From an uncultured Candidatus Micrarchaeota archaeon (GTDB lineage: Archaea; Micrarchaeota; Micrarchaeia; Burarchaeales; Fermentimicrarchaeaceae), in NCBI GenBank assembly GCA_903884505.1, contig CAISET010000002.1:277917-341916 (forward strand): a DNA stretch of 64,000 nt, written 5' to 3'. The notes under the pieces were generated by a model, which was given only the letters and a program-made list of their open reading frames with translations, did no database searches and was not told the DNA's origin. The translations under genes were made by a program, and so were the position numbers. Positions 10,236 through 62,235 of the stretch are shown here, one piece after another (positions within the stretch are counted from its first letter, which is position 1; the number at the start of each line of letters is the position of its first letter).

Positions 10236-12479
10236 ATGTCGTACTCCTGGCTTCTCTTCAACCCATCACCGCTTTCCTTTTGGGGGCAAGCGTTTAATGG
10301 GTTTCGCACCCAACTATACCTTGTGGCAGAAAAGGAGCTCGAGCTGAAAGTGAAGGAGGCCCTCCAGAGCGACGTAGGGAGGGGCATCGCAAGGATAGAC
10401 AGCGCGAACATGGATAAGCTCGGGGTCGAGACTGGCGACGTGCTCGAGGTCGAGGGGCAGGACGGGAAGAAGGCAGCCGCCCTCGCCTGGCGCGCAAGGG
10501 CGGAGGACGAGGGGAAGGGGGCTGTCCGGCTCGACGGAATCCTCAGGCACAACAGTGGAATAAGCGTCGACGACATCGTGAAGGTCAGGAAGGCGGACGT
10601 GAAGCCCGCGAAAGAAGTCCACGTCGCGCCCACTCAGGAAATCTCGTTCAGGGAGGACTTCATCTCATATTTCCACGAGCGCATGCTGAACGCGCCGCTC
10701 ATCTCGGGCAACAGCATTGTTTTGGAGGTGATGGGCCGCGCGCTCGTCTTCACGGTCACGAACACGGCCCCGAAAGGAGTGGTGCAGGTAACTCCTGAAA
10801 CAAAGGTGAAAATTTCCACCAAGCCCATGAAAGCCGCGGCAGCCGTGGGCGTGAGATACGAGGACATCGGCGGCCTGAAGGAGGAGATAGAGTCCATCCG
10901 CGAAATGGTCGAAATCCCAATGAAGCACCCGGAGGTCTTCAAGCGGCTCGGAATCTCGCCGCCGAAGGGCGTGCTGCTCTTCGGCCCGCCCGGCTGCGGG
11001 AAAACATTGCTCGCAAAGGCAGTCGCCTCCGAGAGTGAGGCGCACTTCATCGCGCTCAACGGCCCGGAAATAATCTCGAAGTGGTACGGCGCATCGGAGG
11101 AGAACCTCAGGAAGATTTTCGACGATGCAAAGGAGCACGCGCCCACCATCATCTTCATGGACGAGATTGACGCAATCGCCTCGAAGAGGGAGGAAGCCGC
11201 GGGCGAAGTGGAGAGGCGCGTGGTCTCGCAGCTTCTTACATTGATGGACGGGCTTGAGGCAAGGGGCGACGTAATCGTAATCGCAGCCACAAACAGGCCC
11301 GATTCGATAGACCCTGCGCTGAGACGGCCAGGGAGGTTCGACCGTGAAGTGGAAATCCGCGTCCCGGACAAGGCCGCAAGAAAGGAAGTCCTCCAGATTC
11401 ACACGCGCGGAATGCCGCTCGACAAGGACGTGGACCTTGACGAATTCGTCGAGGTGACCTACGGCTTCACGGGTGCGGACGTCGCCGCGCTCGCGCGCGA
11501 GGCGGCCATGCGCTCCCTCAGGCGCGTCCTCCCGGACATAAAGCGCAGCGAGGAGGGGCTCAGCAAGGAGGTCCTCGGCAAGCTCGTGATAAGGAGGCAG
11601 GATTTCATAGACGCGCTCAAGAAGGTGGAGCCTTCCGCGATGCGCGAGGTGCGCGTGGAAGTCCCGCGGACAAGGTGGTCTGACATCGGCGGCCTCAACG
11701 CCGTGAAGGAGGAGCTTCGCGAGGCGGTCGAGTGGCCCATAAAATACCCGGACAGCTTCGCAAAGCTCGGCATCTCGCCGCCAAAGGGCATAGTCCTGAT
11801 CGGTCCGCCCGGCTGCGGCAAGACGCTTCTCGCCCGCGCAGCAGCAACCGAATCGCAGGCAAACTTCATCTCAATCAGCGGCCCCTCCATACTCTCCAAG
11901 TGGGTAGGGGAGAGCGAGAAGGCCATACGCGAAACGTTCAAGCGCGCGCGGCAGGTCGCCCCCTCCATCCTGTTCTTCGACGAGCTCGACTCCATCGCAG
12001 GCTTGAGGGGCGCGGGGGTTGGCGGCGGAGCCGAAGTCACGGAGCGCGTCGTGGACCAGCTCCTCGTTGAGCTTGACGGGCTGGAAGAATTGCACCAGGT
12101 TGTAGTAATCGCAGCGACCAACCGGCCCGACCTCGTCGACCCCGGGCTGCTCAGGCCGGGGAGGTTCGACAAGCTGGTCTACGTCCCTATGCCGGACAAG
12201 GAGGGAAGGAGGCAGATTTTCGGAGTCTGCACGAAGAAGATGCCCCTCGCCTCCGATGTCAAGCTCGAACAGCTCATCGACAAAACCGACGGCTACAGCG
12301 GCGCGGACATCGCGGCCGTCTGCAAGGAGGCGGGGCTTTTCGCCCTGCGCGAAAGCAAAACAGCCAAGGAAGTGGGCATGAAGCATTTCGAGCATTCCCT
12401 CGCAAAGGTGCGGCCCAGCCTGACGCCGGACGATGCGAAGGCGTGGGAGGAACTGAGGGCGAAGTTCGTGCGCGCCTGA
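10236..12479 (+). CDS. cdc48: CDC48/VCP-like AAA+ ATPase (two AAA domains)
   Basis: An N-domain ([19 protein letters not shown]) precedes two Walker A motifs (GPPGCGKT, twice) with DEID/DELD Walker B motifs. The true start may be the GTG at about 10323. Confidence 0.92.
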
Positions 12480-13058: not shown

Positions 13059-14795
13059 GTGTCTTTGGCAGGCTCAAAACGCGGCCAGATCGCCCTCGGA
13101 TCGTCTCCGGCGATAACGCGTGGCCAGACCGCTCTCGAATTCCTGACAACCTACGGCTGGGCAATCTTAGTGCTCCTGGCCGCGCTCTCAGTAATGTATT
13201 ACCTCGGAATCTTCACCCCTCCTTCGCCCAACTCCTGCATCCTTCCCTCAGGTTTCGCATGCCAGGGGTACAAGCTGTCCTCAGGCCCCGGTGGCAGTGG
13301 CGTGCTCACGCTCGACCTCTCGCAGACGACCGGCCACACAATACACATAGTCGGGCTGGCTTGTTCGGCAGAATCCGCGCCCGGCATGACTGCTGTTGAC
13401 GCAACCTTGGACACGGGCCAGAAAGCCAGCTTCCCCTCCCTCAATTGCTCCAATGTCGACGGTTCGCGACCGGCCGCAGGCGATTACTACCGCGGCAAAT
13501 TATACACCAACTACACGGACGAGGACACGGGAATAAGCCACGTCGTGAAGGGCGAACTATCCTACCGCGTCGAGGTAGCCAGTGCAGCCTCGCCCACACC
13601 AAGCCTCTCTCCCAGCCCCTCCCCGACAGTAGGCATATCCCCTAGCCCGTCACCATCGCCCAGCCCAACTCCGACCCCAACACCTACAGAAACCCCGACT
13701 CCCACTCCAACCCCGACACCGGCGCCCACATCCGCCTTCACGATAGACACGACCGCGGACTTCGACGCTGGGGCTGAGAATGGCACCGCAACGATAACCC
13801 AGAACCCTGGAACGACGGCGGCGGATACGCTCGAACTGAAGAACGCCGAGATAACACCTGATGCGAACACTGTGGGTCTCTGGCACATGGACGAGGGCTC
13901 GAGCGGCACAACCGCTGATTCAAGCGGGAATGGGAATACAGGAACGATAAGCGGCGCAACATGGAATTCCTCCGGCATGTTTGGGAACTCGCTGGCGTTT
14001 AATGGGAGTACTGATTATGTAGATGTCGGGAATAATCCAAGCCTTAGTCCTTCTAATGCCCTGACCGTAACAGCATGGGTAAAATATAATGTTATAAATA
14101 GAAACACGGCCATCTATTCAAATAGCGAAATAATAAATATTGCAGTTAGTAATAGTGACAATGCATTTTTTTATCTTACAGACGTGAATTATTGGGTCAT
14201 GCCTGCAGGTGCAATCGGGAACATCAATAACGGGCAATGGCACCAACTAGTTTTTACTTATGACAGTGCAGGCGGTGCAAATAACATGCGTGTCTATGCA
14301 GACGGCATCTTGAAGCAGCAGACAACAGCAACAGGCACGCTGGCACCAACCAGCCACCATACGAAATTAGGCGTCTGGGCTGACGCTTACTATTGGTATG
14401 ATGGCACCATGGACGACGTCGCAATCTACAACCGCTCCCTCTCGGCTGATGAGATAACCGCACGCTACAATTCCGGCCTGAAATACCACACCTCCGGCAA
14501 CTGGACCTCAGCCACCCAAACGATGCCATCCGGCAAGCAGCTCTACGACCTCAGCCTCACGGTTTCAGGAGGTGGCACCTCAGACATAAGCAAGGTTGAG
14601 GTTCTCGACTCATCTGATAATAGCGTCATCACCACATGTTCCACACCCATCACAACGAGCACCGTGCTCACTGCCGCAGACTTCGACAACGGGTTCGGCG
14701 GGACTATGAACAAGAACCTGAAGCTAAGGCTCTACCTCGTTGGCGATGGCGCAAGCAGCATCGCAATTGAGGATATCCAGGGAAGGGCGCAATAG
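13059..14795 (+). CDS. large pilin-like surface protein: class III signal peptide + pilin core + Pro/Thr/Ser linker + LamG (Laminin_G_3 / ConA-like lectin) domain
   Basis: ITRG|[18 protein letters not shown]. (SP)n(TP)n linker. LWHMDEG..DSSGNGNTGT..GATW..GMFGNSLAFNGSTDYVDV......DDVAIYNRSLSADEI is the PF13385 hallmark. Confidence 0.8.
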   Translation: MSLAGSKRGQIALGSSPAITRGQTALEFLTTYGWAILVLLAALSVMYYLGIFTPPSPNSCILPSGFACQGYKLSSGPGGSGVLTLDLSQTTGHTIHIVGLACSAESAPGMTAVDATLDTGQKASFPSLNCSNVDGSRPAAGDYYRGKLYTNYTDEDTGISHVVKGELSYRVEVASAASPTPSLSPSPSPTVGISPSPSPSPSPTPTPTPTETPTPTPTPTPAPTSAFTIDTTADFDAGAENGTATITQNPGTTAADTLELKNAEITPDANTVGLWHMDEGSSGTTADSSGNGNTGTISGATWNSSGMFGNSLAFNGSTDYVDVGNNPSLSPSNALTVTAWVKYNVINRNTAIYSNSEIINIAVSNSDNAFFYLTDVNYWVMPAGAIGNINNGQWHQLVFTYDSAGGANNMRVYADGILKQQTTATGTLAPTSHHTKLGVWADAYYWYDGTMDDVAIYNRSLSADEITARYNSGLKYHTSGNWTSATQTMPSGKQLYDLSLTVSGGGTSDISKVEVLDSSDNSVITTCSTPITTSTVLTAADFDNGFGGTMNKNLKLRLYLVGDGASSIAIEDIQGRAQ

Positions 14796-14819: not shown

Positions 14820-17264
14820 GTGATTATGTCCAAGATGCAACGTGCGATGCAAATCAAATCGTCTCCGGCGATAACGCGCGGCCAGACTGCTCTCGAATTC
14901 CTGACAACATATGGCTGGGCAATCTTGGTGCTTCTGGCCGCGCTCTCAGTAATGTATTACCTCGGAATCTTCACCCCTCCTTCGCCCAACTCCTGCATCC
15001 TTCCCTCAGGTTTCGCATGCCAGGGGTACAAGCTGTCCTCAGGTCCCGGCGGCAGCGGCGTCCTAACACTTGACTTCTCACAGACTACCGGCCATACCAT
15101 CCACATAACCGGCCTGGCCTGTTCGGCAGAATCCGCGCCAGGCATGACTGCGGTTGACGCAACCCTGGACACGGGGCAGAAAGCCAGCTTCCCCACCATA
15201 AATTGCTCCAATGCAGACGGTTCGCGACCGGCCGCAGGCGATTACTACCGCGGCAAGATCTACATCAACTACACGGACGAGGACACGGGAATGAGCCATA
15301 TCGTGAAGGGCGAACTATCCTACCGCGTTGAGGTAGCCGGCGCAGCCTCGCCCACACCAAGCCCCTCCCCGACTGTCGGCATATCCCCTAGCCCGTCACC
15401 ATCGCCCAGCCCAACTCCGACCCCAACTCCGACACCCACGCCAACTCCTACGCCCACGCCTACCCCGACACCAGTGCCGAACGGCTGGTTCTTCGGCACG
15501 GTCACCGGTTCCGGGCCTATCGAAGGGGTTAGCGTGAATGCAAGCAACGCGACCGGCTTTTGGGCTGACACCACCAATGCCAGCGGCCAGTATGCGATTT
15601 ATGACCTCGCGCCAGGCCAGTACGACCTGAACGCCAGCATGGCAGGCTATTATGACAATGCTACGACCGCCACCATAACCCCTGGCGCCGGAACAGAGAT
15701 GAACTTCACGCTGCAGGCTATCCCGCCTCCCGCCATATTTTTCGATCTGACGTCGACCGCGGACTTCGACGCTGGGGCTGAGCATGGCACCGCAACAATA
15801 ACCCAGAATCCCGGAACGGCAGCTGCGAACACGCTTGAGCTGAAGAACGCCGAGATAACACCTGATGCAAACACAGTGGGCCTCTGGCACATGGACGAGG
15901 GCACTGGCGTCACAACCGCTGATTCAAGCGGGAACGGAAACAGCGGTATGCTTGGCTCTTCCGTGAATTGGGCTTCCAGCAGCCAAGGTTCGACGGCATC
16001 GGCTACTTCCGTATGGGGAGCTCCCTACCCTGCGTCCAAGACTATCGATGATGTTACCAGCGGACTTGGAGGCGCTTGGGCAGCCGCCGATTACGCGGCG
16101 TACCCAATCAATGTGACAATTGATCTGGGGACTGTGCGAGACATCTACAAAGTCGTTGTTTGGCAGATTGATCTCGCGGACTATCATGTGAAAGACTATC
16201 AGGTTCAATTCTCAACAGACGGTTCGAGCTACACTACTATGGCATCCAATACCTTGCCCGACACAACCGCGTATGCCCAAACCAACACGTTCAGTTCCAC
16301 TCCAACAAGATACATACGAATCTACATTACTTCAGGCTATCACCATTATGCGTATGACTCCGCGGGGTTGGAGGAAATCCAAGCATATTCTGCCCCCAGG
16401 TGGAACTCCAGCGGCATGTTTGGGAACGCGCTGCGCTTTGACGGGGCGGATGATTATGTTGATGCTGGAAATGGGGCCAGTTTGAATATCGTTAACACAG
16501 TTAGTATCGAAGCATGGGTGAAGCCTGCATCAAATACTCAGAATAGTGCAATAGTTTCTAAATGGACAACTGGGTTAGGCACAATCAATTCTTATGCTCT
16601 ATACATCGGGCAAAATGCAGGCAACAACAAATGGGCATTTGCCATAGAACAATCAAATAATACTTATCGGGAACTTTCACCAAGTTCTCCAACTTTTAAT
16701 GCAGGAACATGGTACCATGTCGCTGCAGTGGCAGACGGCTCATACTTGCGACTTTATATAGATGGAATAGATACCGGAACAACAACTTCTTATGACGGAA
16801 CCATCAAAACCACTACTAAAAAACTGCTTATTGGAAAATTGAGAGAAGAAGACAATCTTTATGATTTTGACGGCACCATCGACGACGTCGCCGTCTACGA
16901 CCGCGCCCTCTCAGTAGATGAGATAGCCGCGCTCTACAACTCCGGCCTGAAATACCATACCTCCGGCAACTGGACCTCAGCCACCCAAACGATGCCGTCC
17001 GGCAAGCAGCTCTACGACCTCAGCCTCACGGTTTCAGGAGGTGGCACCTCAGACATAAGCAAGGTTGAGGTTCTCGATTCATCCGACAACAGCGTCATCA
17101 CAACGTGCACCACGCCAATCACAGCGAACACCGTGCTCACCGCTGCAGACTTCGACAACGGGTTCGGCGGGACTATGAACAAGAACCTGAAGCTAAGGCT
17201 CTACCTCGTTGGCGATGGCGCAAGCAGCATCGCAATTGAGGATATCCAGGGAAGGGCGCAATAG
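14820..17264 (+). CDS. large pilin-like surface protein: class III signal peptide + pilin core + PT linker + carboxypeptidase-regulatory-like domain + F5/8 type C (discoidin) domain + LamG domain
   Basis: The N- and C-terminal modules are near-identical to 13059..14795. Inserted domains: [37 protein letters not shown] (CarbopepD_reg-like); [30 protein letters not shown] (discoidin-like); LamG with [15 protein letters not shown]. Confidence 0.8.
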
Positions 17265-25165: not shown

Positions 25166-25298
25166 GCCGTGGTAGCTCAGCCTGGGAGAGCATTCGAATC
25201 TTTTCTTGGTTTCCAAGAAAAGGTGATGAAGCTGAAGGATTCCCAGACGAGGGGAGCCAGAAACCGAAGGGTCGCAGGTTCAAATCCTGCCCACGGCA
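25166..25298 (+). tRNA. intron-containing tRNA (about 133 nt; anticodon uncertain, possibly CUU/Lys). Intron of about 60 nt in the anticodon loop with a 10-bp hairpin and a GUGAUGA box-C-like motif
   Basis: Acceptor GCCGUGG/CCACGGC+A. D-arm GCUCAGCCUGGGAGAGC. T-arm GCAGGUUCAAAUCCUGC. The two halves are separated by an insert. Confidence 0.7.
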
Positions 25299-25372
25299 CT
25301 GACCCTTTTCCCAATCGCCCGGGTTCGCAGCCCGGCGATATGGTAAAAGCGTCAACGGAAAACGTCATAAAT

Positions 25373-25524
25373 GCGATCGTAGTCTAGCCTGGTAGGACTC
25401 GGCCTTGCCAAGGCCGTGGCCCGGGTTCAAATCCGAACCGCGGAGGGGGACACCCCCTCCTCAGTTTGAGGGTCCTCCGGATCCTCCCCCGTTCGACGGG
25501 GCGGTGAAACTCCCGGCGGTCGCA
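25373..25524 (+). tRNA. tRNA-Gly(GCC) with an ~85-nt intron in the T-arm (between the T-loop and the 3' T-stem)
   Basis: GCGAUCG-UA-GUCUAGCCUGGUAGGAC-U-CGGCC-UUGCCAA-GGCCG-UGGC-CCGGG-UUCAAAU, then [insert with three hairpins], then CCCGG-CGGUCGC-A. Confidence 0.7.
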
Positions 25525-25532
25525 TGTTTTCT

Positions 25533-25689
25533 GCGGTCGTAGTCTAGCCTGGTAGGACTTAGGCCCTCCAATGGCCCTTTTCCCACCGCATATCCGGCTC
25601 CGCCGGGTTGCGCATGGTAAAAGCGCCAGCGGAAAATCCGCTGGCGAAGAGGAAAGCCTATAACCCGGGTTCAAATCCCGGCGGCCGCA
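25533..25689 (+). tRNA. intron-containing tRNA, most likely tRNA-Gly(UCC) with an ~80-nt intron at 37/38. The alternative reading Trp(CCA) is not excluded
   Basis: The 5' half is near-identical to the other Gly tRNAs. UAGGC/GCCUA stem pairs perfectly across the insert. Intact T-arm CCGGGUUCAAAUCCCGG and acceptor GCGGUCG/CGGCCGC+A. Confidence 0.65.
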
Positions 25690-28874: not shown

Positions 28875-30023
28875 TTAAATAATCTTCTGCTTTTTTCTCC
28901 AGCATCCGCATTCCGCAGAAATCCGTTCATAGGCTTCAATCAGCGGCATCCTCTTCCGGCGGGCTATTGCACGCACGTCGTCAAACTCAGGCTTGCACTT
29001 CTCAATCCCGGCCGAGCACTTCACGTGCACGGCCCCCAAGCTGGTCTTCACAATGACAATCTTCCGCTCGAGCATGTGCTTCTGGACCGGAATCTCCCGG
29101 ACTCCCCATGTGGTCGTTTCCCTGAGCATTGCATCGAGCACGCGTTGCCTGTCCGCAACATTGCACAGCGCCTGGAGGATGACGCCAGGGCGGCCCTTCT
29201 TCGCTATAATCGGGATGATGCACGAGTCCTTCGCGCCTTCCTCCATCAGCCTCTCAGCGGCATACTGCAAGGCTTCCCCGCTCATGTCATCGATGTTCGC
29301 CTCAAGCATGATGAAATTCGCCCCACCTTCTCGCTCCCCGAGTGCCGCGCGAAGCACATTCGGCTTTTCAAGCTCAGCCTTCCCCGCACCGTAAGCCACC
29401 TTCTCCGCAACCATCTGCACGTCTTCCGCAGGCCTCGCGGCAGCCACAATCAGCGCAGCGCCTGTCGGAGTGCATAGCTCGTGCGAAGACTCTCTTATAA
29501 CAAATGGGAACCGCGCCTTCCTCAAAATCTCCATGGCTGCGGGCCCTGCCCCGCTTCCAACCCCGACTGGCAGCGCAAGCACTTGCGCGCCGCTGAATGC
29601 GCCAAGCTCGTCGAGAAGGGCTGCAGTCCCGATAATATCCATGATTGTGTCCTCCTCCGCAAGCTCGTGCAGATGAACGTCCCTGGTTCCATGCACGGCT
29701 TTCTCAGCCGCCAGGATTATGCCGAACGCCTTTGCGCAGAACTCCTGCGCGCCCTTCGATAGCCCAGCTGCTTTCGCCCCAGCGGCAATCCTCTTCTGCA
29801 TCTCCGCAGCCGAATACCGCACCGGCTTCCCCACGGCCTTCATCAGCCTCGCGCGCACATGCCCCCTTTCAACGAATCCGAAGCCCACCCGCTTCCCCAC
29901 GCCTGCCGCGCGCAGCTTCGCGTTCAGGAGCTTTTCGCTGCCGTCAACCAGGCCCGAAAGCGCAGAGATTAGCATGTCCCCGCTCGCGCCTGAGCCGGCA
30001 TCAACCAGAATTGCCTTGACCAC
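28875..30023 (-). CDS. larC: LarC-family nickel insertion protein (DUF111)
   Basis: ILVDAGSGASGDMLISAL...LHELAEEDTIMDIIG are DUF111/LarC N-terminal motifs. Confidence 0.75.
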   Translation of the reverse strand: MVKAILVDAGSGASGDMLISALSGLVDGSEKLLNAKLRAAGVGKRVGFGFVERGHVRARLMKAVGKPVRYSAAEMQKRIAAGAKAAGLSKGAQEFCAKAFGIILAAEKAVHGTRDVHLHELAEEDTIMDIIGTAALLDELGAFSGAQVLALPVGVGSGAGPAAMEILRKARFPFVIRESSHELCTPTGAALIVAAARPAEDVQMVAEKVAYGAGKAELEKPNVLRAALGEREGGANFIMLEANIDDMSGEALQYAAERLMEEGAKDSCIIPIIAKKGRPGVILQALCNVADRQRVLDAMLRETTTWGVREIPVQKHMLERKIVIVKTSLGAVHVKCSAGIEKCKPEFDDVRAIARRKRMPLIEAYERISAECGCWRKKQKII

Positions 30024-30055
30024 GTTTTTTAATAGGCGCGCGCAATATTAAAAGC

Positions 30056-30850
30056 GTGAGCAAAGGAAGGGCAAACGGAAAGCTGAAAACCCTGCTTGAG
30101 GTGCTTAGCAGCATGGTGCCAGCAGCAGTCGCGCTCTCCGGCGGCACAGACAGCTCCCTTCTTGCAGCAGCCGCTTTCCGCGCGCACAAAGGCTCGGTCG
30201 CAATCACTGTCGACGACGCAACCCTTCCGCGCAGCGAGCTTGCGGATGCAAAAAAAGTGGCAAGGTTGATAGGAATCCGCCACATAACCATCAAAATCGG
30301 CGCCCGCCCCAAAGCCTTCTTCGCAAATGACGCGCGCAGGTGCTACTACTGCAAAAAGCAGACCTTCGGGCGCATCCGCGAAGCAGCAACCGAGCTTGGC
30401 ATAAAGCATGTTCTTGACGGCACGAATGCGGATGACATTTACGATTTCAGGCCTGGGATGCGGGCTGCGCGCGAGGAAGGCGTGCGGTTCCCGCTGCTTG
30501 AGGCGGGCATGGGCAAATCCGACGTCCGGAAACTTGCGAAGTCGCTAAGCCTCCCGGTCTGGGACAAGCCCGCCTCAGCCTGCCTCGCCTCCCGCATCCA
30601 GCGCGGCATGCCCATAACGAAGCGGAAGCTCTCCCGCATCGAGGCGGCAGAGGAATTCCTTAAGCGCAAGTTCGGCGTGAGGCTCGTCCGCGTGCGCGAC
30701 CATGGGAATCTGGCGCGCATCCAGTTCAGCCGCAGCGAGATGCGCAGGCTGCGCGAGGACGGCGGGCTGGCAGCCGCATCGAGAAGGTTAAAATCACTCG
30801 GCTACAAATTCGTCTGCATGGATGCTGATGGCTATGTGCGCGGAAGTTGA
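30056..30850 (+). CDS. larE: LarE-like ATP-dependent sulfur transferase (PP-loop ATP pyrophosphatase)
   Basis: PP-loop SGGTDSS. Conserved Cys (ASACLASR). Confidence 0.75.
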   Translation: MSKGRANGKLKTLLEVLSSMVPAAVALSGGTDSSLLAAAAFRAHKGSVAITVDDATLPRSELADAKKVARLIGIRHITIKIGARPKAFFANDARRCYYCKKQTFGRIREAATELGIKHVLDGTNADDIYDFRPGMRAAREEGVRFPLLEAGMGKSDVRKLAKSLSLPVWDKPASACLASRIQRGMPITKRKLSRIEAAEEFLKRKFGVRLVRVRDHGNLARIQFSRSEMRRLREDGGLAAASRRLKSLGYKFVCMDADGYVRGS

Positions 30851-31583
30851 GGAAGTCCTGCAAGCAGTTCGGGGCGGCCGCCTCTCGATAAATGCAGCCG
30901 CGCGCAGGCTCAGGCTCAACAGCATCACCGAGGTAAGGGATTTCGCAAGGCTCGACTCATTCAGGGCCGCACGCTCCGGCATTCCGGAGATAATACTCGC
31001 AGAGGGCAAAAGCCCGGAAAAGGTAGTTATGATAGCGAAGGCCGCAAAATCGCCTATGCTCATAACCCGGATGGGGAACGGGCACACCGCGGCTCTGAAA
31101 AAGGCGTTTCCTAAGATGACCTACAACCGGAGCGCCCGCTCCGCATTCACCGGCAGCCTACCGGCAAAATCCGCAGGAAGAATAGGCGTGCTCGCGGCAG
31201 GCACGAGCGACGTGCCAATCGCGGAGGAAGCAGCTTTCACGGCCGAGGCAATGGGCTGCGAGGCGCTCCGCGCATATGATGTGGGGGTTGCCGGAATCCA
31301 CCGCCTTTTCAAGCCGCTGAAAAGCATGGTTGGGAAGGGGGCCCGCGCATTCGTAGTCGCTGCAGGAAGGGAGGGAACGCTCCCGGCAATAGTCGCGGGG
31401 CTCGTGGACGTGCCGGTGATAGGCCTTCCCATTTCAACGGGCTACGGATACGGGGGGAAGGGCGAGGCAGCGCTCAAATCCATGCTGCAGAGCTGCTCCT
31501 TTTTAACGGTTGTCAATATAGATAATGGGATTGGCGCAGGGGCCTGCGCCGCGTTGATTGCCAAGAAGGCGGTGGGAAAATGA
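30822..31583 (+). CDS. larB: LarB-like nickel-pincer nucleotide biosynthesis carboxylase (PurE-like)
   Basis: PurE-fold C-terminal half (IGVLAAGTSDVPIAEEA...VVAAGREGTLPAIVAGL.. VIGLPIS). The upstream N-terminal extension is typical of LarB. Confidence 0.7.
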   Translation: MLMAMCAEVEEVLQAVRGGRLSINAAARRLRLNSITEVRDFARLDSFRAARSGIPEIILAEGKSPEKVVMIAKAAKSPMLITRMGNGHTAALKKAFPKMTYNRSARSAFTGSLPAKSAGRIGVLAAGTSDVPIAEEAAFTAEAMGCEALRAYDVGVAGIHRLFKPLKSMVGKGARAFVVAAGREGTLPAIVAGLVDVPVIGLPISTGYGYGGKGEAALKSMLQSCSFLTVVNIDNGIGAGACAALIAKKAVGK

Positions 31584-34149: not shown

Positions 34150-35352
34150 CAGGTCGAAAATCTTCTTCGCAATCCCGCTCTTCCTTTCGGCAAATTTCGC
34201 TCCGTCACCGTTCTTTCTCAGGATTAGCACCTCATTCGTCTCCGTCCCGAACCCGGCCCCTTTTCTTGAAACATCATTCGCAACAATCAAATCAGCGCCA
34301 CACTTCCTCATCTTCTCCAGAGCCCTCCGCTTCAGTTCAGCATCGCTTACCCCGCTCTCCGCCTTGAAAAGCACAAGCCCGGCCTTCCTGTTCCATTTTC
34401 TAACGGCATCCGAAATCTTCGGCGCAGGCAAAAGGGAGATGTTAGCGTTCTTCCTTCCCGAACTCATCTTCCCCTTCTCCTTCTTCGCAATGAAATCGCC
34501 AACTGCCGCCGCAAGGGCTATCACGGCAGCGCCTTTGGCCTCCTTCCTGGCCGCAGCGTGCATCTCCGATGCGCTTCCCGCGCGCACAACCTTCAGATAG
34601 CCCGGAACCGGCGCCTCCGTATGGCCGGCAATGAGCGTCACATCCGCCCCGCGCAGCCACGCTTCCCTTGCGAGCGCAATCCCCATCCTTCCGCTGCTAG
34701 GGTTCGAGATGAACCGCACGTCATCGATTGGCTCCCTCGTCGCGCCGGCGGTCACAAGCACCTTCTTCCCCTTCAGCGTCCCCTTCGCGAGCCTTCTTAT
34801 GCAGACATCAACAATCTCGCGGCTCTCAGCAATCTTCGCCTTCCCCTCTTCCATCCGCGGCATGATTACCTGCACGCCTTTCTTCTTCAGGCGGGCTATG
34901 TTCTCTGCGACAAACGGGTTCTCATAGATGCTCAGGTGCATGGCCGGCACAACCACAATCGGAATTTTCGCCCCGAGCGCGGTGCTTGCGCAGGTCGTTA
35001 CCGGCGTATCGTCAATTCCCCAGACCATCTTCCCAATCGTATTCGCGGTGCATGGCGCAATTAGAAGCAGGTCTGATTTCCCCGCAGTCCCGCACAGCGA
35101 AATATGCTCGCACTCGCCAGTGAGTTCCGTGACAACGGGATTGCCCGTGGACCAGTGCATCAGCTGCGGGCCTACAAGCCCCTGTGCTGCGCGGCTCATC
35201 ACGCAGAATACTTCGGCGCCATGGCGCATCAGCCCGCGCGCAAGCTCCGGTGAGTTCGCCGCGGCGACGCTGCCGGTGATGCAGAGGCATATCTTCTTTC
35301 CCGCAAGCTCAGAGCCGCTCGAGCCGATGATTGATGTCGAGCTGTGCATCAT
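34141..35352 (-). CDS. coaBC: bifunctional phosphopantothenoylcysteine decarboxylase / phosphopantothenate-cysteine ligase
   Basis: N-terminal flavoprotein domain (ICLCITGSVAA...PAMH) and C-terminal DFP ligase domain. Confidence 0.85.
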   Translation of the reverse strand: MMHSSTSIIGSSGSELAGKKICLCITGSVAAANSPELARGLMRHGAEVFCVMSRAAQGLVGPQLMHWSTGNPVVTELTGECEHISLCGTAGKSDLLLIAPCTANTIGKMVWGIDDTPVTTCASTALGAKIPIVVVPAMHLSIYENPFVAENIARLKKKGVQVIMPRMEEGKAKIAESREIVDVCIRRLAKGTLKGKKVLVTAGATREPIDDVRFISNPSSGRMGIALAREAWLRGADVTLIAGHTEAPVPGYLKVVRAGSASEMHAAARKEAKGAAVIALAAAVGDFIAKKEKGKMSSGRKNANISLLPAPKISDAVRKWNRKAGLVLFKAESGVSDAELKRRALEKMRKCGADLIVANDVSRKGAGFGTETNEVLILRKNGDGAKFAERKSGIAKKIFDLLE

Positions 35353-37169
35353 TTCCTGCGCCTCTTCGCAGCCACCCTGATTTTCTGCGCCGCCATCGCC
35401 CTTCCCTTCGATATCGCGCGCGTGTAAAGCACGATGCTCAATATCGCGGAGGTTACCAGGAGTATGCTGAGCAGCACTATCACAACGACCAGCGACTCGT
35501 TCAGCTTCTCGACGTTCTCCTGGGCCGGTATTGAGGCAGGCGTCGCTGAAGGCGCCGGGACCGCATTCGGGTTCTCGAATAGCACGAGCATCATCGTGGT
35601 GTCGTTCTCCATCCCATCGGCTATAGATCCGAGCCTAAGCACCGTGCCGGCGTCTCCGCCAGTCAGGTTGTAAAAGCTCGCATGCGCAAAGAAGAGCGCG
35701 GACCAGAGCGTCTTCCCCTTCCTCGCCAGGAACCCGCTTGCCTTCTGCGAGGCGGCGTTCTCCCCTTGGGCGCTATAGTTCGCCGCCCTGAGCGCGCCAA
35801 GCACGTAATCAGCATCATACACCGCGGCCCCGTACTCGCTCGCATTCAATGCCATCTCAGCGCTCGAGAAGTGGAACTGCAGGTCGCTGTCTTCCCCCTG
35901 CGGCCCTGCCATCGCCCCGCGCGCCTCGCCTACGCGTGCAAGCGCCAGGTTCCTGAGCGCCGCCTCATCCGCACCGCTTCCGCCCACTTCGGCAGCCGCG
36001 GAGTAAAGCTCCTTCGAAATCCCGCACCAGCTCTTCGCGAGCAGGGCGTCCTTGTAGAGCACGAGCACCTCCTCGCTGTCATTCACCGCAAGCTCCTGCT
36101 TCTTCACTTCCGCGAGCTTGTTTCTCGCCCATGTTGCGCGCAGGTCCGCCCCCACCCTGAACCCGAGGTTCTCCTTCGTTAATCTTCCGCGGTCAATCCC
36201 GTTTATGCAGCTTCCGACATCTGAAATAAGAAGCGCCAGGTCCTGCCTGTTCGGGCTGCCGTTCTTCACCACTTCCGCATTGATGCGGTTCAGGAAGGCC
36301 GTGTTCGCCGCAGTGTAGAAATACCCATTGGCCAGCATCTCCCCGCTGTCCGCAACATCCTCCCTAAGCAACGGCAGTACGGTTGCCGCCGCTATGCTGT
36401 TGCTTCTTGCCGCATCTTCGGTCTCGTTCGCAGAACTTTCCACCACCCCGCTAGCTATCTCCCCGAACCTCCCGACTCCGCAGCCCGGGCAATCGTAGGA
36501 GTAGGGCTGGAGATGCAGCGGCGCGGGCGTTTCCACGGGCAGCGGCTGCGGGTAAGTGCCCTCCGCAGCGAACGCTATATCCCTGACTTGGGTGATGTTG
36601 TCAACCTCGAATACGGTCACATTGAGCCTGCCCATCAGGCTCACGAGCGTTATCTTATCGAACGTGTCGCTTTCCCGCGGCAGCAGCACGAGTTTTATCC
36701 CGCCAGCAGAGGCCGCCTCGACCTTCTGGTATATGCCGCCAACCGCCCCCACCTTCCCGCCGTCCTCTATGGTTCCAGTTACCGTGAAATCCCCGCGCAG
36801 CGGCCTTCCCTCGAGCGCGGAAATTGTGAGCAGAGTCATCGCGGCTCCCGCGCTTGGGCCGTCAACCTGCCTCGTTTCCCCGACATCCATCGTCAGGAAA
36901 ACATCATAGTCGCTCTCATTCTTCCCGAGGACGGCCATCGCGTTCTCGACCGCCTTCCTTTCGGACTGCTGCGTGTCAATCCCAATCAGCGGGTTGGTCG
37001 AGGTGTATATGTTCCCGGTTCCATTCCTCACATCGACGGTAATAAGTATGAGCACCCCTCCGCCGTCCGTGACTACTGCAGGCACGCGCATGCTCGCATT
37101 AGCCGCGCTGGCCTGCAGCGACGCACAAATAAGCACAAAGGCAAGAACGATTATCGCATTCATCTTCAA
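35349..37169 (-). CDS. membrane-anchored extracytoplasmic Lon-like S16 serine peptidase
   Basis: Signal peptide. VDGPSAGAAMTLL...GGIYQKVEAASAGG (Ser-Lys dyad of the Lon proteolytic domain). C-terminal TM plus basic tail. No AAA module. Confidence 0.65.
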   Translation of the reverse strand: MKMNAIIVLAFVLICASLQASAANASMRVPAVVTDGGGVLILITVDVRNGTGNIYTSTNPLIGIDTQQSERKAVENAMAVLGKNESDYDVFLTMDVGETRQVDGPSAGAAMTLLTISALEGRPLRGDFTVTGTIEDGGKVGAVGGIYQKVEAASAGGIKLVLLPRESDTFDKITLVSLMGRLNVTVFEVDNITQVRDIAFAAEGTYPQPLPVETPAPLHLQPYSYDCPGCGVGRFGEIASGVVESSANETEDAARSNSIAAATVLPLLREDVADSGEMLANGYFYTAANTAFLNRINAEVVKNGSPNRQDLALLISDVGSCINGIDRGRLTKENLGFRVGADLRATWARNKLAEVKKQELAVNDSEEVLVLYKDALLAKSWCGISKELYSAAAEVGGSGADEAALRNLALARVGEARGAMAGPQGEDSDLQFHFSSAEMALNASEYGAAVYDADYVLGALRAANYSAQGENAASQKASGFLARKGKTLWSALFFAHASFYNLTGGDAGTVLRLGSIADGMENDTTMMLVLFENPNAVPAPSATPASIPAQENVEKLNESLVVVIVLLSILLVTSAILSIVLYTRAISKGRAMAAQKIRVAAKRRRK

Positions 37170-38101
37170 GCAATCGCCTCCACTGCGGCAGCGATGCGCG
37201 CCTTCGCCTCAGGCTTCGCGAGGAGCGCCCTTTCGCCGGCCTCAAATACAAATTCACGCTCGGCTTTAATAACAGCTTCGCCCTCCGCTCCTGCGGCGAC
37301 AGAGCCCGCAACCGAGACAGGCACGTACTGCATGCCTATGCTCAGGAAGTACTGCCCGCTTGAGACTCCGCCAGAGAACTTCGAAGCCTTCAATCTCACC
37401 TTAATCTCCTTCCCGCTCCTCAGCGAGCCGGGCTCGGCAAGCACGAATCCCCTCTCCAGCTCCTCGGCTTCCGCGCCCTTCATAGCCACCCCAACCCTGC
37501 TGCCGCACGATGCCTCCTCCACGTCCTCGTCCTGCACCTGCAGCGACTTCGCAACCACTTTCTTCCCAGTAGGGTAGAGCTCGAGCTCCTGGTGCTTCCT
37601 CACGCTTCCCCTTGCAACTATCCCCAGCACAACAGCGCCGACGCTCTTCACTGCAAACGAGTGGTCTATCGGGATTTTCGTGGGGCCGGCAGCCCGCTCA
37701 ACCTTGACCCCGCTCACCTTCCCCCTGATCAGGTTCGCATCCTTCGCGACGAACTCGTACTTTTCCAGCGCGGTCCCCTTCAAAAACGCTTTCACTGCTT
37801 GCTCATCCGCCCCTTCTCCAACCGCAATAAGCCCATTTTTCTTCCCGAGCAAATCGAGCGCAACAACCGTCTCCCCGAAGAACCTGTCAACCTCATTCAC
37901 CACAAGCACGACAAAATCCGCCGGGTTTATGCAGTGGAGCAGCGGCTGCAGCTTCTCGGGGTAAAGGGTTGGCTCGAAGAAGCTGACCACCTCCCCCTCT
38001 GCCTTCAGGTGGTAAATCGTGAAATCGCTCGCTGTCCCCTTTTTCGCAATCTCCTTACCGATGTTCTTGTCGCCCAGCAGCGCGACGTTCAAGTGGTCCA
38101 T
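37166..38101 (-). CDS. EF-Tu/EF1A-like GTPase-fold protein with a degenerate P-loop
   Basis: ALLGDKNIGKEIAKKGT sits in place of GHVDHGKST. A beta-barrel domain-2-like region follows. The ORF-table start (38230) would overlap the tRNA, so the internal ATG at 38101 was chosen. Confidence 0.45.
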   Translation of the reverse strand: MDHLNVALLGDKNIGKEIAKKGTASDFTIYHLKAEGEVVSFFEPTLYPEKLQPLLHCINPADFVVLVVNEVDRFFGETVVALDLLGKKNGLIAVGEGADEQAVKAFLKGTALEKYEFVAKDANLIRGKVSGVKVERAAGPTKIPIDHSFAVKSVGAVVLGIVARGSVRKHQELELYPTGKKVVAKSLQVQDEDVEEASCGSRVGVAMKGAEAEELERGFVLAEPGSLRSGKEIKVRLKASKFSGGVSSGQYFLSIGMQYVPVSVAGSVAAGAEGEAVIKAEREFVFEAGERALLAKPEAKARIAAAVEAIA

Positions 38102-38118
38102 ATTCTCATCAATTTGAA

Positions 38119-38278
38119 TGCGGCCGCCGGGATATTCAGCGAAGCTGAATGCGCGTGCGCGCACGCAACCTGCATTTGAACCCGGGTTATAAGCTTCTTC
38201 CGGTTTCTTTTCCAGGGTTTTCTTTCCCAAAGAAAAGCCTTGGGAAGCTCATGTCCTACCAGGCTAGACTACGGCCGC
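38119..38278 (-). tRNA. tRNA-Gly(CCC) with two introns: about 44 nt at 37/38 and about 42 nt in the T-arm after the T-loop
   Basis: Minus strand GCGGCCG-UA-GUCUAGCCUGGUAGGAC-A-UGAGC-UUCCCA|intron|A-GCUUA-UAAC-CCGGG-UUCAAAU|intron|CCCGG-CGGCCGC-A. Confidence 0.65.
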
Positions 38279-60201: not shown

Positions 60202-62235
60202 CTACTTTTTCGCAACCCACGCGGCACCGATTCCGGCGAACAGCAGCGCGAATCCAGTTGGGCATATCCCTCCGCCTTGGCCGGGAGTTGCCGTTGCGGT
60301 AGGCGCAGGCGTCGCGGTCGCGGCCGCAGTTGGCGCAGGAGTCAGCGTCGGCACCGGAGTCGATGTGGGCGCAGGTGTCGCAGTCGCATTTCCCCCAGGC
60401 GTCGGGCTTCCCATCGGGCTTGCTGTCGGAGAAGCCGCTGGCGTGGGCGAAACCCCGGGCGACGGCGAAACTGCAGGCGTGGGGCTTGGCTGCGCGCACG
60501 CGCCTATGCTGAAGAACTTGACCTGCTGCGGGTATCCGCTCTTGTCAGCCACCGCTTTGTAGCTGCCCGCGCTTGAGGGCGTGAAGTTGGCCCTCCCGTT
60601 CGCGTCGCCGGTCAGGTTCGCAACCAAATCCCAGTTCAGCGAAGTGTTGTAGATGAACACCCCGACGCCCGCCCCGGGAATCGGGTTGCCGGACTGGTCC
60701 TCCACGCTCAAATTAATCCCCTCTTGCGTGCAGTTCCCGGCCACCGAAATCTTCAGCGCCCTAGTTGCATTCGGGCCGAACCCGTTGTCCTGCAGGTAAT
60801 AAATATCATAATTCCCCTGGAAGTTGTCCTCGAAAACCGCATGCACCCTGTTCCTGCCATCCAGCATGAAGTCATGGGAATACGAGTTCGAGTTGGTGTT
60901 GCTCACATCCCGCGCACCCCTCCAGGAGGAGTTCCACCCATTCCAATAAATCTCGCTGTTCCCGGGCGTGTCGTCCCCCCAGAGGACATGGAGGTAACCG
61001 TTCCCGTCCGCTCTTATCGCAGGCAGGTAGGAGAATCCCGTCGTGTTAGAGATGTCCGTCCAGTTGGAGAAGCTCACCCCGCCGTCATTGCTCCCAGAAT
61101 AAAGTATCTCATAGTTCCCGGGCGCGCCGTCCATCCAGGCCACATGCAGCTTATCGGACGCATCAACCTCGATTCTCGGCCAGTTCGAGTCCTGGTCCGG
61201 CGTGTTCGAAATGTCCTGCGAATTATGCGCCGCCCCGTTCTTCACGTTCGCATACCAAACATCCCACTGCGCGGGCAAGCTGCCGCTCGTGCCGTTCGCC
61301 TCCCTCCATGCCACATGCGCCACATCGAGCGAATCCGCATCCACGTCCGGCTTCTCCGAGCCTCCGATGGTGTTCGAGACATCAACAAGGTTGCCGCCTG
61401 TGCTGCGCGCATACCAAATCTCCATGCCCCTGTCCCACACCACGTGGAACCCGCCATTCTTGCTCGGCGCAAGCCTCGGGTGGTTCCCGCCGGCCGCATT
61501 ATCCAGCCACCTGGGGGCTGCCCACGGCTGCGGCACTCCAACATACTCCATGAACGACGCCATGGTCGCGCCATCCACGAACGCGAGCCCAGGCTGGCCG
61601 TTCTTGTCAATCGCGAGCTCGTAATAGATACTGGGCATCCCGCCAGCCACCGTGCTGGCCAGCCCGACGTCCGTTGCCTGCGCAGCGGCATCCCACGTCC
61701 TTCCGCGGTTTATCGAGCGCGAAAACCAGGGCGTATACTGCCATGCCTGCCCATGAACCTGCTCAGCCCAGACGACATACACGACCCCCTGCGAATCAAC
61801 AACTATCCTTGGCTGGATAGAATCATTGGTCGTGTTCGAAATGTCAATCGGCGCATTCCAGCTTCCGCCGAAATTGTTCGTGTATAATATCTCCCAGTTC
61901 CTCCCGCTCGGGCAATCGGCGAGCGGCGGCTCGGGCTCGCCAGCCGGGGGTGGCGTTGGCGAAGGCGTCACGCTCTGCGACGGCGTGGGAGTTGGCGTCG
62001 GGGTGGGAGTTGTTGTCGTGGCCGGCGTTTCAGTTGGCGATGGGCGCGGCTGGGGAAACACGCACTCCTGCCAGACGGCATGCACCACCCCGTTCGAGTC
62101 AACATAGACTCTCGGGTTTATCGAATTGCTCCCGGTATTCGATATGTCTACTGGCGCGCCGAAAGCAAGAACAAGCGAAGCTGCAAGAATCAGGGCTAGC
62201 CCTGCTCTAAATTCCCACGAGGCCATGCTAACCAC
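60202..62235 (-). CDS. cell-surface protein with repeated BNR/sialidase-like beta-propeller blades, a carboxypeptidase-regulatory-like domain, PT linker and a PGF-CTERM-like C-terminal TM anchor
   Basis: Signal peptide. At least six repeats of the pattern DISNT...P(R/A)I.VD..G..H.VW.D/E. C-terminus PTGFALLFAGIGAAWVAKK. Confidence 0.6.
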   Translation of the reverse strand: MVSMASWEFRAGLALILAASLVLAFGAPVDISNTGSNSINPRVYVDSNGVVHAVWQECVFPQPRPSPTETPATTTTPTPTPTPTPSQSVTPSPTPPPAGEPEPPLADCPSGRNWEILYTNNFGGSWNAPIDISNTTNDSIQPRIVVDSQGVVYVVWAEQVHGQAWQYTPWFSRSINRGRTWDAAAQATDVGLASTVAGGMPSIYYELAIDKNGQPGLAFVDGATMASFMEYVGVPQPWAAPRWLDNAAGGNHPRLAPSKNGGFHVVWDRGMEIWYARSTGGNLVDVSNTIGGSEKPDVDADSLDVAHVAWREANGTSGSLPAQWDVWYANVKNGAAHNSQDISNTPDQDSNWPRIEVDASDKLHVAWMDGAPGNYEILYSGSNDGGVSFSNWTDISNTTGFSYLPAIRADGNGYLHVLWGDDTPGNSEIYWNGWNSSWRGARDVSNTNSNSYSHDFMLDGRNRVHAVFEDNFQGNYDIYYLQDNGFGPNATRALKISVAGNCTQEGINLSVEDQSGNPIPGAGVGVFIYNTSLNWDLVANLTGDANGRANFTPSSAGSYKAVADKSGYPQQVKFFSIGACAQPSPTPAVSPSPGVSPTPAASPTASPMGSPTPGGNATATPAPTSTPVPTLTPAPTAAATATPAPTATATPGQGGGICPTGFALLFAGIGAAWVAKK

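Follow-up and report, generated by a model that had tools for sequence, protein, structure and literature searches.

Can an archaeon use the cutting domain of Lon on the outer face of its membrane, without an ATPase, and what might such an enzyme act on? This question is raised by a gene in a stretch of 64,000 nucleotides of contig CAISET010000002.1 from an uncultured Candidatus Micrarchaeota archaeon (hereafter the window). An earlier reading of the DNA letters and their open reading frames (ORFs), called here the sequence-only reading, described the 606-residue product as an extracytoplasmic, membrane-anchored Lon-like peptidase of MEROPS family S16 without an ATPase module. In its view, the protein is composed of a cleavable signal peptide, a Lon proteolytic domain, a large helical/TPR-like extension, a single C-terminal transmembrane (TM) helix and a poly-basic cytoplasmic tail. 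We refer to this product as the S16 protein. The reading that we favor, with a probability of roughly 0.7, is that it is a type I membrane protein whose stand-alone S16 domain lies on the outer membrane face and cleaves extracytoplasmic proteins in an ATP-independent manner.

The proteolytic and helical domains

The S16 protein belongs to MEROPS S16 / Pfam Lon_C by profile, fold and catalytic dyad alike. The Lon_C profile matched residues 33-200 over positions 35-203 of its 205 (E=2.4e-15; 57.1 bits against a cut-off of 21.1). A phmmer search of the sequences in the Protein Data Bank (PDB) hit the proteolytic (P) domain of E. coli Lon (1rr9, E=5e-13), and also LonB of A. fulgidus, M. jannaschii and T. 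onnurineus. Structure prediction with AlphaFold2 (AF2), a check that the sequence-only reading had proposed, gave a full-length model with a predicted local distance difference test (pLDDT) of 87.8 and a predicted template modelling score (pTM) of 0.77. When this model was compared with the PDB by Foldseek, the top 50 hits were all Lon P domains (3wu6/1rr9; E about 3e-11), with template modelling scores for the target of about 0.8 (0.75-0.83), i.e. the Lon fold.

Both motifs of the Ser-Lys dyad were located, DGPSAG at residues 103-108 and YQKVEAA at residues 147-153. In the phmmer alignment, DGPSAG sits on DGPAAG of 1rr9, which is the crystal construct with the S679A substitution, and Ser106 is therefore assigned as the nucleophile. 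Thr131 lies 25 residues past Ser106, where 'vtGtI' is aligned with 'mtGeI' of the E. coli enzyme; it is the equivalent of T704 in E. coli Lon and presumably shares its role. Conservation was followed in an alignment of 24 full-length homologues and among the relatives from a scan of species-representative genomes, in which 590 were found; all counts per relative given here refer to the best 80 of these 590. Ser106 and Lys149 are invariant in the aligned homologues (24/24), as are Thr131 and the motifs GPSAGAA, TG and G.VGG...K, and Ser with Lys at +43 is present in all genomic relatives (80/80). Thus, the dyad is intact as claimed, and the loss of Ser or Lys on alignment that the sequence-only reading had named as a possible counter-argument was not seen, both residues being aligned and kept. 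The 42 residues between Ser106 and Lys149 agree with the spacing that is the rule across Lon subfamilies (PMC9569914). Two types of catalytic centre are distinguished, the A-type with Pro before Ser (LonA) and the B-type with Asp before Ser (archaeal LonB) (PMC9569914), and the centre of the S16 protein is of A-type (G-P-S), in an archaeal protein. The P domain scored alike against the models of LonA, LonB and bacterial LonB/LonC (about 44-66 bits), so that it is assigned to none of these subfamilies.

Lon_C was the sole domain matched in the S16 protein by Pfam and NCBIfam, in line with the claimed lack of an ATPase module; neither AAA+ families nor PDZ, TPR or sorting-signal families were matched at E<=0.1 in these two collections. 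In the homologue alignment and the AF2 model, the N-terminal signal-like segment runs directly into the P domain. One alternative is that the protein is a cytoplasm-facing tail-anchored protein or a non-catalytic scaffold built on a Lon domain, which we consider very improbable. Lon-like domains without protease activity do exist, RadA for example, and RadA was weakly matched here (E=0.0018 in NCBIfam; 0.01 by phmmer against PDB). On the other hand, the invariance of the Ser-Lys dyad and the Thr speaks against a mere scaffold; the cytoplasm-facing form of this alternative is taken up with the topology below.

The extension behind the P domain proved to be large and all-helical, as claimed, but it is not TPR-like: no TPR profile was matched, and 'TPR-like' is unsupported because the structure search returned no natural TPR protein. 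This domain of about 300 residues, when modelled alone from 19 sequences, gave a pLDDT of 92, a pTM of 0.90 and 13 helices. Foldseek with this model found no match at E<=0.001, i.e. no solved structural relative. Its conserved motifs are GY.YTAAN.AF, DLR..WA, WC and LW..L..AHA; Ala288 and Trp381 are invariant, and F292 and R344 near-invariant, in the alignment of 24 homologues.

Orientation in the membrane and possible substrates

Hydropathy revealed two hydrophobic segments, one at each end of the S16 protein (residues 1-25 and about 558-583), the latter being the strong segment expected of the single C-terminal TM helix. The N-terminal segment is laid out like a Sec-type signal with its n-, h- and c-regions: one Lys, a hydrophobic core of 14-15 residues, and then QASAANA. 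Small residues at -3/-1, which homologues keep as well, stand directly ahead of the conserved SM.VPAV, the first strand of the protease; in the AF2 model, residues 3-17 form a helix, 18-20 are of low confidence and 23-32 form a beta strand. The segment varies in sequence among the homologues, while its position is constant. The predicted cleavage is likely to occur after residue 25 (A-N-A|S), or alternatively after A22.

We also considered that the N-terminal hydrophobic segment stays uncleaved as a second anchor, so that the ectodomain is tethered at both ends. Some relatives have a longer N-terminal hydrophobic stretch or extra residues ahead of it, and the short forms of 256-309 residues appear to be anchored by the N-terminus alone. 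Nevertheless, this arrangement is unlikely for the S16 protein, in view of the short h-region (about 14-15 residues only), the small -3/-1 residues abutting the conserved start of the protease domain, and the conservation of the position of the segment rather than of its sequence.

Several features point to the side of the membrane on which the protease domain lies. The S16 protein contains 13 N-x-S/T sequons against 3.8 expected for its composition (3.5-fold), a number that none of 5000 shuffles reached (0/5000), and its z-score of 5.4 is the highest of the 55 non-overlapping ORFs of the window. No sequon is found after its TM helix. Similarly, 22 of the 23 homologues scored that have a TM helix show a sequon excess (z>=2), with almost no sequon past the helix, and the sequons at residues 183, 464 and 522 recur across the homologue alignment. 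Charge is distributed unevenly around the TM helix of the query and of most homologues: K/R prevail over the 20 residues on its C-terminal side, and acidic residues over those on its N-terminal side. Moreover, four Cys residues (227, 230, 321 and 382) are conserved in the closer homologues, with the C-x-x-C in the ten closest. Taken together, the signal-like N-terminus, the sequon excess, the charge asymmetry and the cysteines make it by far the likeliest, on sequence grounds, that the protein has a type I orientation and exposes its protease and helical domains on the outside while the tail stays inside. The ectodomain is probably N-glycosylated and disulfide-bonded, as these sequons and cysteines suggest. 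A cytoplasm-facing tail-anchored protein would have an N-in orientation, which is contradicted by the hydrophobic segment at the N-terminus, by a sequon excess confined to the pre-TM part and by the basic tail; furthermore, the window's own LonB, which faces the cytoplasm, has no sequon excess (1 against 1.9 expected).

The topology proposed by the sequence-only reading thus agrees with these features. The signal-like N-terminus, the pre-TM sequons and the basic tail, together with the same pattern in homologues, predict an extracytoplasmic, membrane-anchored protein, its signal peptide is predicted to be cleavable from the n/h/c layout and the -3/-1 residues, and the C-terminal TM helix and the poly-basic tail were both recovered. 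An S16 domain placed in the cytoplasm, which had been named as an observation against that reading, is not what the sequons, the charge distribution and the signal-like N-terminus suggest. As for sorting, there was no match to NCBIfam CTERM models at E<=0.1 and no PGF motif in the S16 protein. An archaeosortase (PGF-CTERM-type) substrate was therefore rejected, the tail being 23 residues long here and 100-250 residues in some relatives.

On the favored reading, the N-terminal segment would direct Sec-dependent export and would probably be removed after Ala25, so that the mature chain would open with the first strand of the protease. The C-terminal helix would serve as the membrane anchor with the basic tail in the cytoplasm, and the helical domain and the stalk would lie between protease and membrane. 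Since the enzyme has no ATPase and there is no ATP outside the cell, it would be unable to unfold its substrates, and the Ser106-Lys149 dyad, assisted by Thr131, would cut unfolded or flexible segments only. Candidate substrates are misfolded exported proteins, and also tails or pro-segments that surface and membrane proteins expose. The helical domain may be a spacer, a substrate selector or a gate, in place of the PDZ domain of YlbL (DdcP) of Bacillus subtilis and SepM of streptococci.

A second possibility, which we hold to be a good deal less probable, is a processing protease of narrow specificity, with the same location and chemistry, that would mature or inactivate a single class of extracytoplasmic substrate, for example a signalling peptide, a precursor of the surface layer or of an adhesin, or a regulator anchored in the membrane; the helical domain would then be the specificity module. 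Both characterized S16 enzymes without ATPase are indeed substrate-specific (SepM on CSP-21 and YlbL on YneA), the strongly conserved motifs of the helical domain suggest a defined binding function, and the large sequon-rich surface proteins of the window are possible clients. On the other hand, no substrate gene is conserved alongside in the 80 loci, and the occurrence of the family in diverse archaeal phyla with different envelopes is a better fit to a generic role. A general quality-control role is thus ranked slightly above dedicated processing, because the family is broad and no substrate gene is linked to it.

Three large proteins with an N-terminal hydrophobic segment are encoded elsewhere in the window at 13059..14795 (+), 14820..17264 (+) and 60202..62235 (-), and have 7, 12 and 13 sequons, respectively. 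Their domains include Laminin_G_3, F5/8 type C and CarboxypepD_reg, and all three are probably glycoproteins of the surface or for adhesion.

A third possibility is that the S16 protein is an ectoprotease for feeding, by which a genome-reduced, host-dependent DPANN archaeon cuts host or environmental proteins for peptide uptake. This would suit the predicted outer-face location, the closest relatives, which are of Micrarchaeota and Iainarchaeota type, and the presumed dependence of such DPANN archaea on external amino acids. However, the same architecture is found in genomes labelled Thermoproteota, Desulfurococcales and Thermococci, which are not known to be host-dependent, the gene is not linked to a peptide transporter, and a Lon P domain is ill suited to digesting folded proteins. 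Feeding is therefore quite improbable as the function.

Several points weigh against ATP-independent cleavage on the outer face as well. The gene neighbourhood gave no hint of a substrate across the 80 loci, and we found no paper on this archaeal family in the literature on COG1750, archaeal S16/Lon-like extracellular enzymes and Micrarchaeota Lon, of which our coverage is incomplete. Isolated Lon P domains are weak peptidases. In addition, YlbL purified without its TM segment was inactive in vitro (PMC6051672). Because of these last two points, the activity of the S16 protein may need oligomerization, the membrane or a partner.

The gene, its family and its surroundings

The S16 gene is a real gene: its ORF exactly matches the 606-residue protein read earlier on the minus strand, the identical protein is recorded on nine contigs (with the same neighbours on the 4 contigs listed), and homologues of the same length and layout range from 66% down to about 20% identity. 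ORFs in other frames that overlap it are shorter and lack comparable support. Codon 3 is ATG, an alternative to the mechanically called TTG start; the TTG is favored because K/R is kept within the first three residues (the n-region) of homologues. The domains, catalytic codons and the LonB gene of the window are collected in Table 1.

Table 1. Positions in the window of the S16 gene, of the segments and catalytic codons of its product, and of the LonB gene.
Feature	Position	Strand	Basis
S16 gene	35349..37169	-	606-aa ORF, TTG start, TGA stop (six-frame ORF list and DNA)
Signal-like segment, residues 1-25	37095..37169	-	Hydropathy; n-region MK, h-region AIIVLAFVLICASL, c-region QASAANA
Lon proteolytic domain (Lon_C / MEROPS S16), residues 26-204, complete	36558..37094	-	Pfam PF05362, phmmer, Foldseek
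Catalytic Ser106 codon AGC, in VDGPSAGAA	36852..36854	-	Aligns with E. coli Lon S679
Thr131 codon, TG motif	36777..36779	-	Aligns with E. coli Lon T704
Catalytic Lys149 codon AAG, in GGIYQKVEAA	36723..36725	-	Aligns with E. coli Lon K722
Pro-rich linker with CPGC (Cys227, Cys230), residues 205-231	36477..36557	-	Sequence; AF2 model without regular secondary structure
Family-specific all-helical domain, 13 helices, residues 232-532	35574..36476	-	Predicted structure
Pro/Ala/Ser-rich flexible stalk, residues 533-557	35499..35573	-	Sequence; AF2 pLDDT <50 at 543-557
Single TM helix, residues 558-583	35421..35498	-	Kyte-Doolittle 19-residue mean up to 2.98; equivalent TM segment in most relatives
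Basic tail, residues 584-606 and stop	35349..35420	-	RAISKGRAMAAQKIRVAAKRRRK: 10 K/R in 23 residues, no D/E
Canonical ATP-dependent membrane-inserted LonB, 697 aa	53539..55632	-	Pfam AAA, LonB_AAA-LID, Lon_C E=9e-31

The gene is part of an informational run on the same strand, namely the genes for primase, GINS, L44e, eIF2alpha, PAC2 and a protein with EF-Tu domain 2, followed by the S16 gene and coaBC. Its TTG start shares 4 nt with the stop of the upstream gene (TTGA, 37166-37169). The upstream gene at 37166..38230 (-) has only an EF-Tu domain 2 match (SelB/EF-Tu-like, residues about 183-270) and none to a GTPase domain; it is called as 332 aa on other contigs and had a tblastn match in 0/80 of the related loci. 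The 4-nt overlap with the downstream coaBC that had been noted before is present as ATGA at 35349-35352, shared between the stop of the S16 gene and the ATG of coaBC, and the downstream gene is verified as a bifunctional CoaBC (TIGR00521, E=3e-108; Flavoprotein and DFP domains). Adjacency to coaBC is kept in the four closest relatives only (L001-L004) and is therefore regarded as local synteny; a functional link between the two genes was rejected for the same reason. When 620 neighbour ORFs of the 80 loci were clustered, no conserved neighbour was found but only lineage-specific ones, and the recurrent neighbours included no recognizable unfoldase of Lon or Clp type or other protease partner. 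The commonest neighbour, present in 15 loci of Iainarchaeota type, encodes a Rad50/SMC-like ATPase and lies mostly on the opposite strand.

To judge from profile matches, the family is large, old and housekeeping-like, and extends across DPANN, Thermoproteota and Thermococci. Searched against 1.84 billion cluster representatives (50% identity clusters), the profile of the helical domain matched 1,180 at E<=0.001 and 948 at E<=1e-10. Among the 150 matches listed, the helical domain nearly always begins at residue 200-240 of a protein of 540-680 aa, right after a module of the size of Lon_C. The closest relatives of the S16 protein come from Micrarchaeota and Iainarchaeota-type genomes, and the labels of the 80 relatives include Micrarchaeota, Iainarchaeota, Woese-, Nano-, Aenigm-, Undin- and Parvarchaeota, and further Thermoproteota, Desulfurococcales, Acidilobaceae, Bathy- and Hadarchaeota, Thermococci and Nitrososphaerota, with one short contig labelled Deltaproteobacteria. 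Some contigs labelled 'uncultured Methanosarcinales' carry proteins that are, at their ends, nearly identical to proteins from contigs labelled Woesearchaeota (L043/L047 and L033/L034). Mis-binning is suggested by these pairs, and the taxonomic breadth read from the labels of metagenome-assembled genomes should therefore be taken with caution.

In most of the 80 relatives, a hydrophobic segment at the N-terminus is combined with a TM helix at the C-terminus, and the helical domain is present in 70/80, which come from many archaeal phyla and share the layout of Lon_C, helical domain and TM helix. A few short relatives (256-309 aa) consist of the N-terminal anchor and Lon_C only. Some long relatives, on the other hand, carry Lys-rich, coiled-coil-like cytoplasmic extensions of 100-250 aa past the TM helix (P0017, P0018; loci L012-L020, L026, L031, L032, L036-L039, L042, L059 and L060), a hint of a signalling or anchoring function inside the cell in the lineages concerned. 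In P0017 and P0018 the extension contains a motif like '...GKISEANYDRLRQKY', which looks SHOCT-like. As a bolder proposal, and a rather unlikely one, the family may provide the archaeal surface or pseudo-periplasm with its main ATP-independent protease; a ring of P domains, kept above the membrane by the hitherto undescribed helical domain, which would gate or select substrates, would play a role like those of HtrA/DegP and Prc-type enzymes in bacterial envelopes. In DPANN archaea it might also act on host proteins at the contact site.

Other parts of the window deserve a short mention. A tRNA cluster at 25166..25689 (+) contains tRNAs of 133 nt (25166-25298) and 157 nt (25533-25689) according to Rfam, and tRNA-Gly(gcc) at 25372-25443 and an odd 89-nt 'tRNA-Phe(aaa)' at 25600-25688 according to ARAGORN, which suggests intron-containing archaeal tRNA genes that were mis-called. 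The ORF at 10236..12479 (+) encodes a double-AAA ATPase of Cdc48/VCP type (747 aa; CDC48_N, CDC48_2 and two AAA domains). The group at 28875..31583 adjoins genes for a UbiA-family protein, purC and purE and has, by Pfam on other contigs, Ni_insertion, Asn_synthase/NAD_synthase (faint) and AIRC domains; it is putatively LarC/LarE/LarB-like, for the nickel-pincer cofactor. In the closest relatives, synteny is kept over part of the block.

Comparison with LonB and other Lon-type systems

The organism carries an ordinary ATP-dependent LonB in addition to the S16 protein without ATPase. The LonB of the window has a Walker A motif (GVPGTGKS), a hydrophobic insert at about 183-237 and a B-type centre (VEGDSAS). 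The S16 gene is regarded as a distant paralogue and not as a decayed copy; a recent duplicate of the organism's own LonB was rejected as well, in view of the 32% identity over 129 aa and the A-type versus B-type centres. The S16 protein shares with archaeal LonB (S16.005; 1z0w of A. fulgidus, 3k1j of T. onnurineus) the homologous P domain, the dyad spacing and attachment to the membrane. LonB, however, has an AAA+ domain with a membrane-inserted hairpin and a B-type centre, whereas the S16 protein is without ATPase, of A-type and predicted to lie outside. Both domains of LonB face the cytoplasm (table in PMC4343526). The LonB model TIGR00764 scored the S16 protein at 58 bits against a cut-off of 517, and the A-type centre and the lack of an inserted anchor set it apart from LonB.

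The best match in sequence and structure is the P domain of LonA (E. coli 1rr9/3wu6), with the Pro-Ser motif of A-type in common. LonC of Meiothermus is ATP-independent, and the S16 protein would likewise degrade its substrates without ATP-powered unfolding. LonA and LonC form hexamers in the cytoplasm and retain N-terminal domains besides an AAA+ or degenerate AAA-like module (PMC9569914); the S16 protein has none of these. Having no AAA+ or degenerate AAA-like module, it is not a strict Lon protease (LonA, LonB, LonBA or LonC). The sequence-only reading had referred to secreted Lon-like peptidases in Methanocaldococcus and Thermococcus; no report of them was found, and the structures solved from these two genera (1xhk and 3k1j), which belong to membrane-bound ATP-dependent LonB, match the S16 protein by their proteolytic domains only.

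Proteolysis at the outer face of archaea is poorly charted, and the reviews covered by our analysis list under S16 only the ATP-dependent, cytoplasm-facing LonB (PMC4343526). Our analysis suggests that archaea, too, export the Lon cutting domain without its motor, fused to a helical domain without solved relative. If active, this protein would be a natural system for the control of the Lon active site without an unfoldase, and it may take part in quality control of the envelope or in the maturation of surface proteins, for which these organisms have few other candidates. The concept of an extracellular S16 enzyme without ATPase is not new, because YlbL and SepM are documented in bacteria, and many MEROPS S16 groups are without ATPase components (PMC9569914). 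Relatives of the S16 protein already bear the NCBI name 'S16 family serine protease'. Thus, the principle and the generic label are known already, and the existence of the family is unlikely to surprise a specialist, while we found no description of this architecture or of its helical domain.

The closest parallels are YlbL and SepM, with which the S16 protein has in common a stand-alone S16 domain with a Ser-Lys dyad, a membrane anchor and one accessory domain, and no AAA+ module. YlbL is composed of a TM segment, a PDZ domain and a Lon domain, was described as 'likely' extracellular by its authors, and needs Ser234 and Lys279 in vivo (PMC6051672). SepM, with a TM segment, a PDZ domain and an S16 domain, cuts the CSP-21 peptide (PMC11197336), and is called an outer surface protease in the title of a bioRxiv preprint. 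The catalytic domains of both are judged to be outside, while the outside location of the S16 protein is a prediction from its sequence. The two bacterial proteins are about 340 aa long, and the order in SepM is an N-terminal TM segment, PDZ and a C-terminal Lon domain. In contrast, the order in the S16 protein is reversed (signal peptide, Lon domain, helical domain and C-terminal TM helix), and the protein has no PDZ domain. It is therefore not a member of the YlbL/SepM family, the SepM model being far under its cut-off as well (NF041438 SepM_fam_S16, 32.3 bits against 200); the PDZ-Lon family was absent from archaea in a survey (PMC6411480). By analogy with these bacterial enzymes, the S16 protein most likely works like YlbL and SepM.

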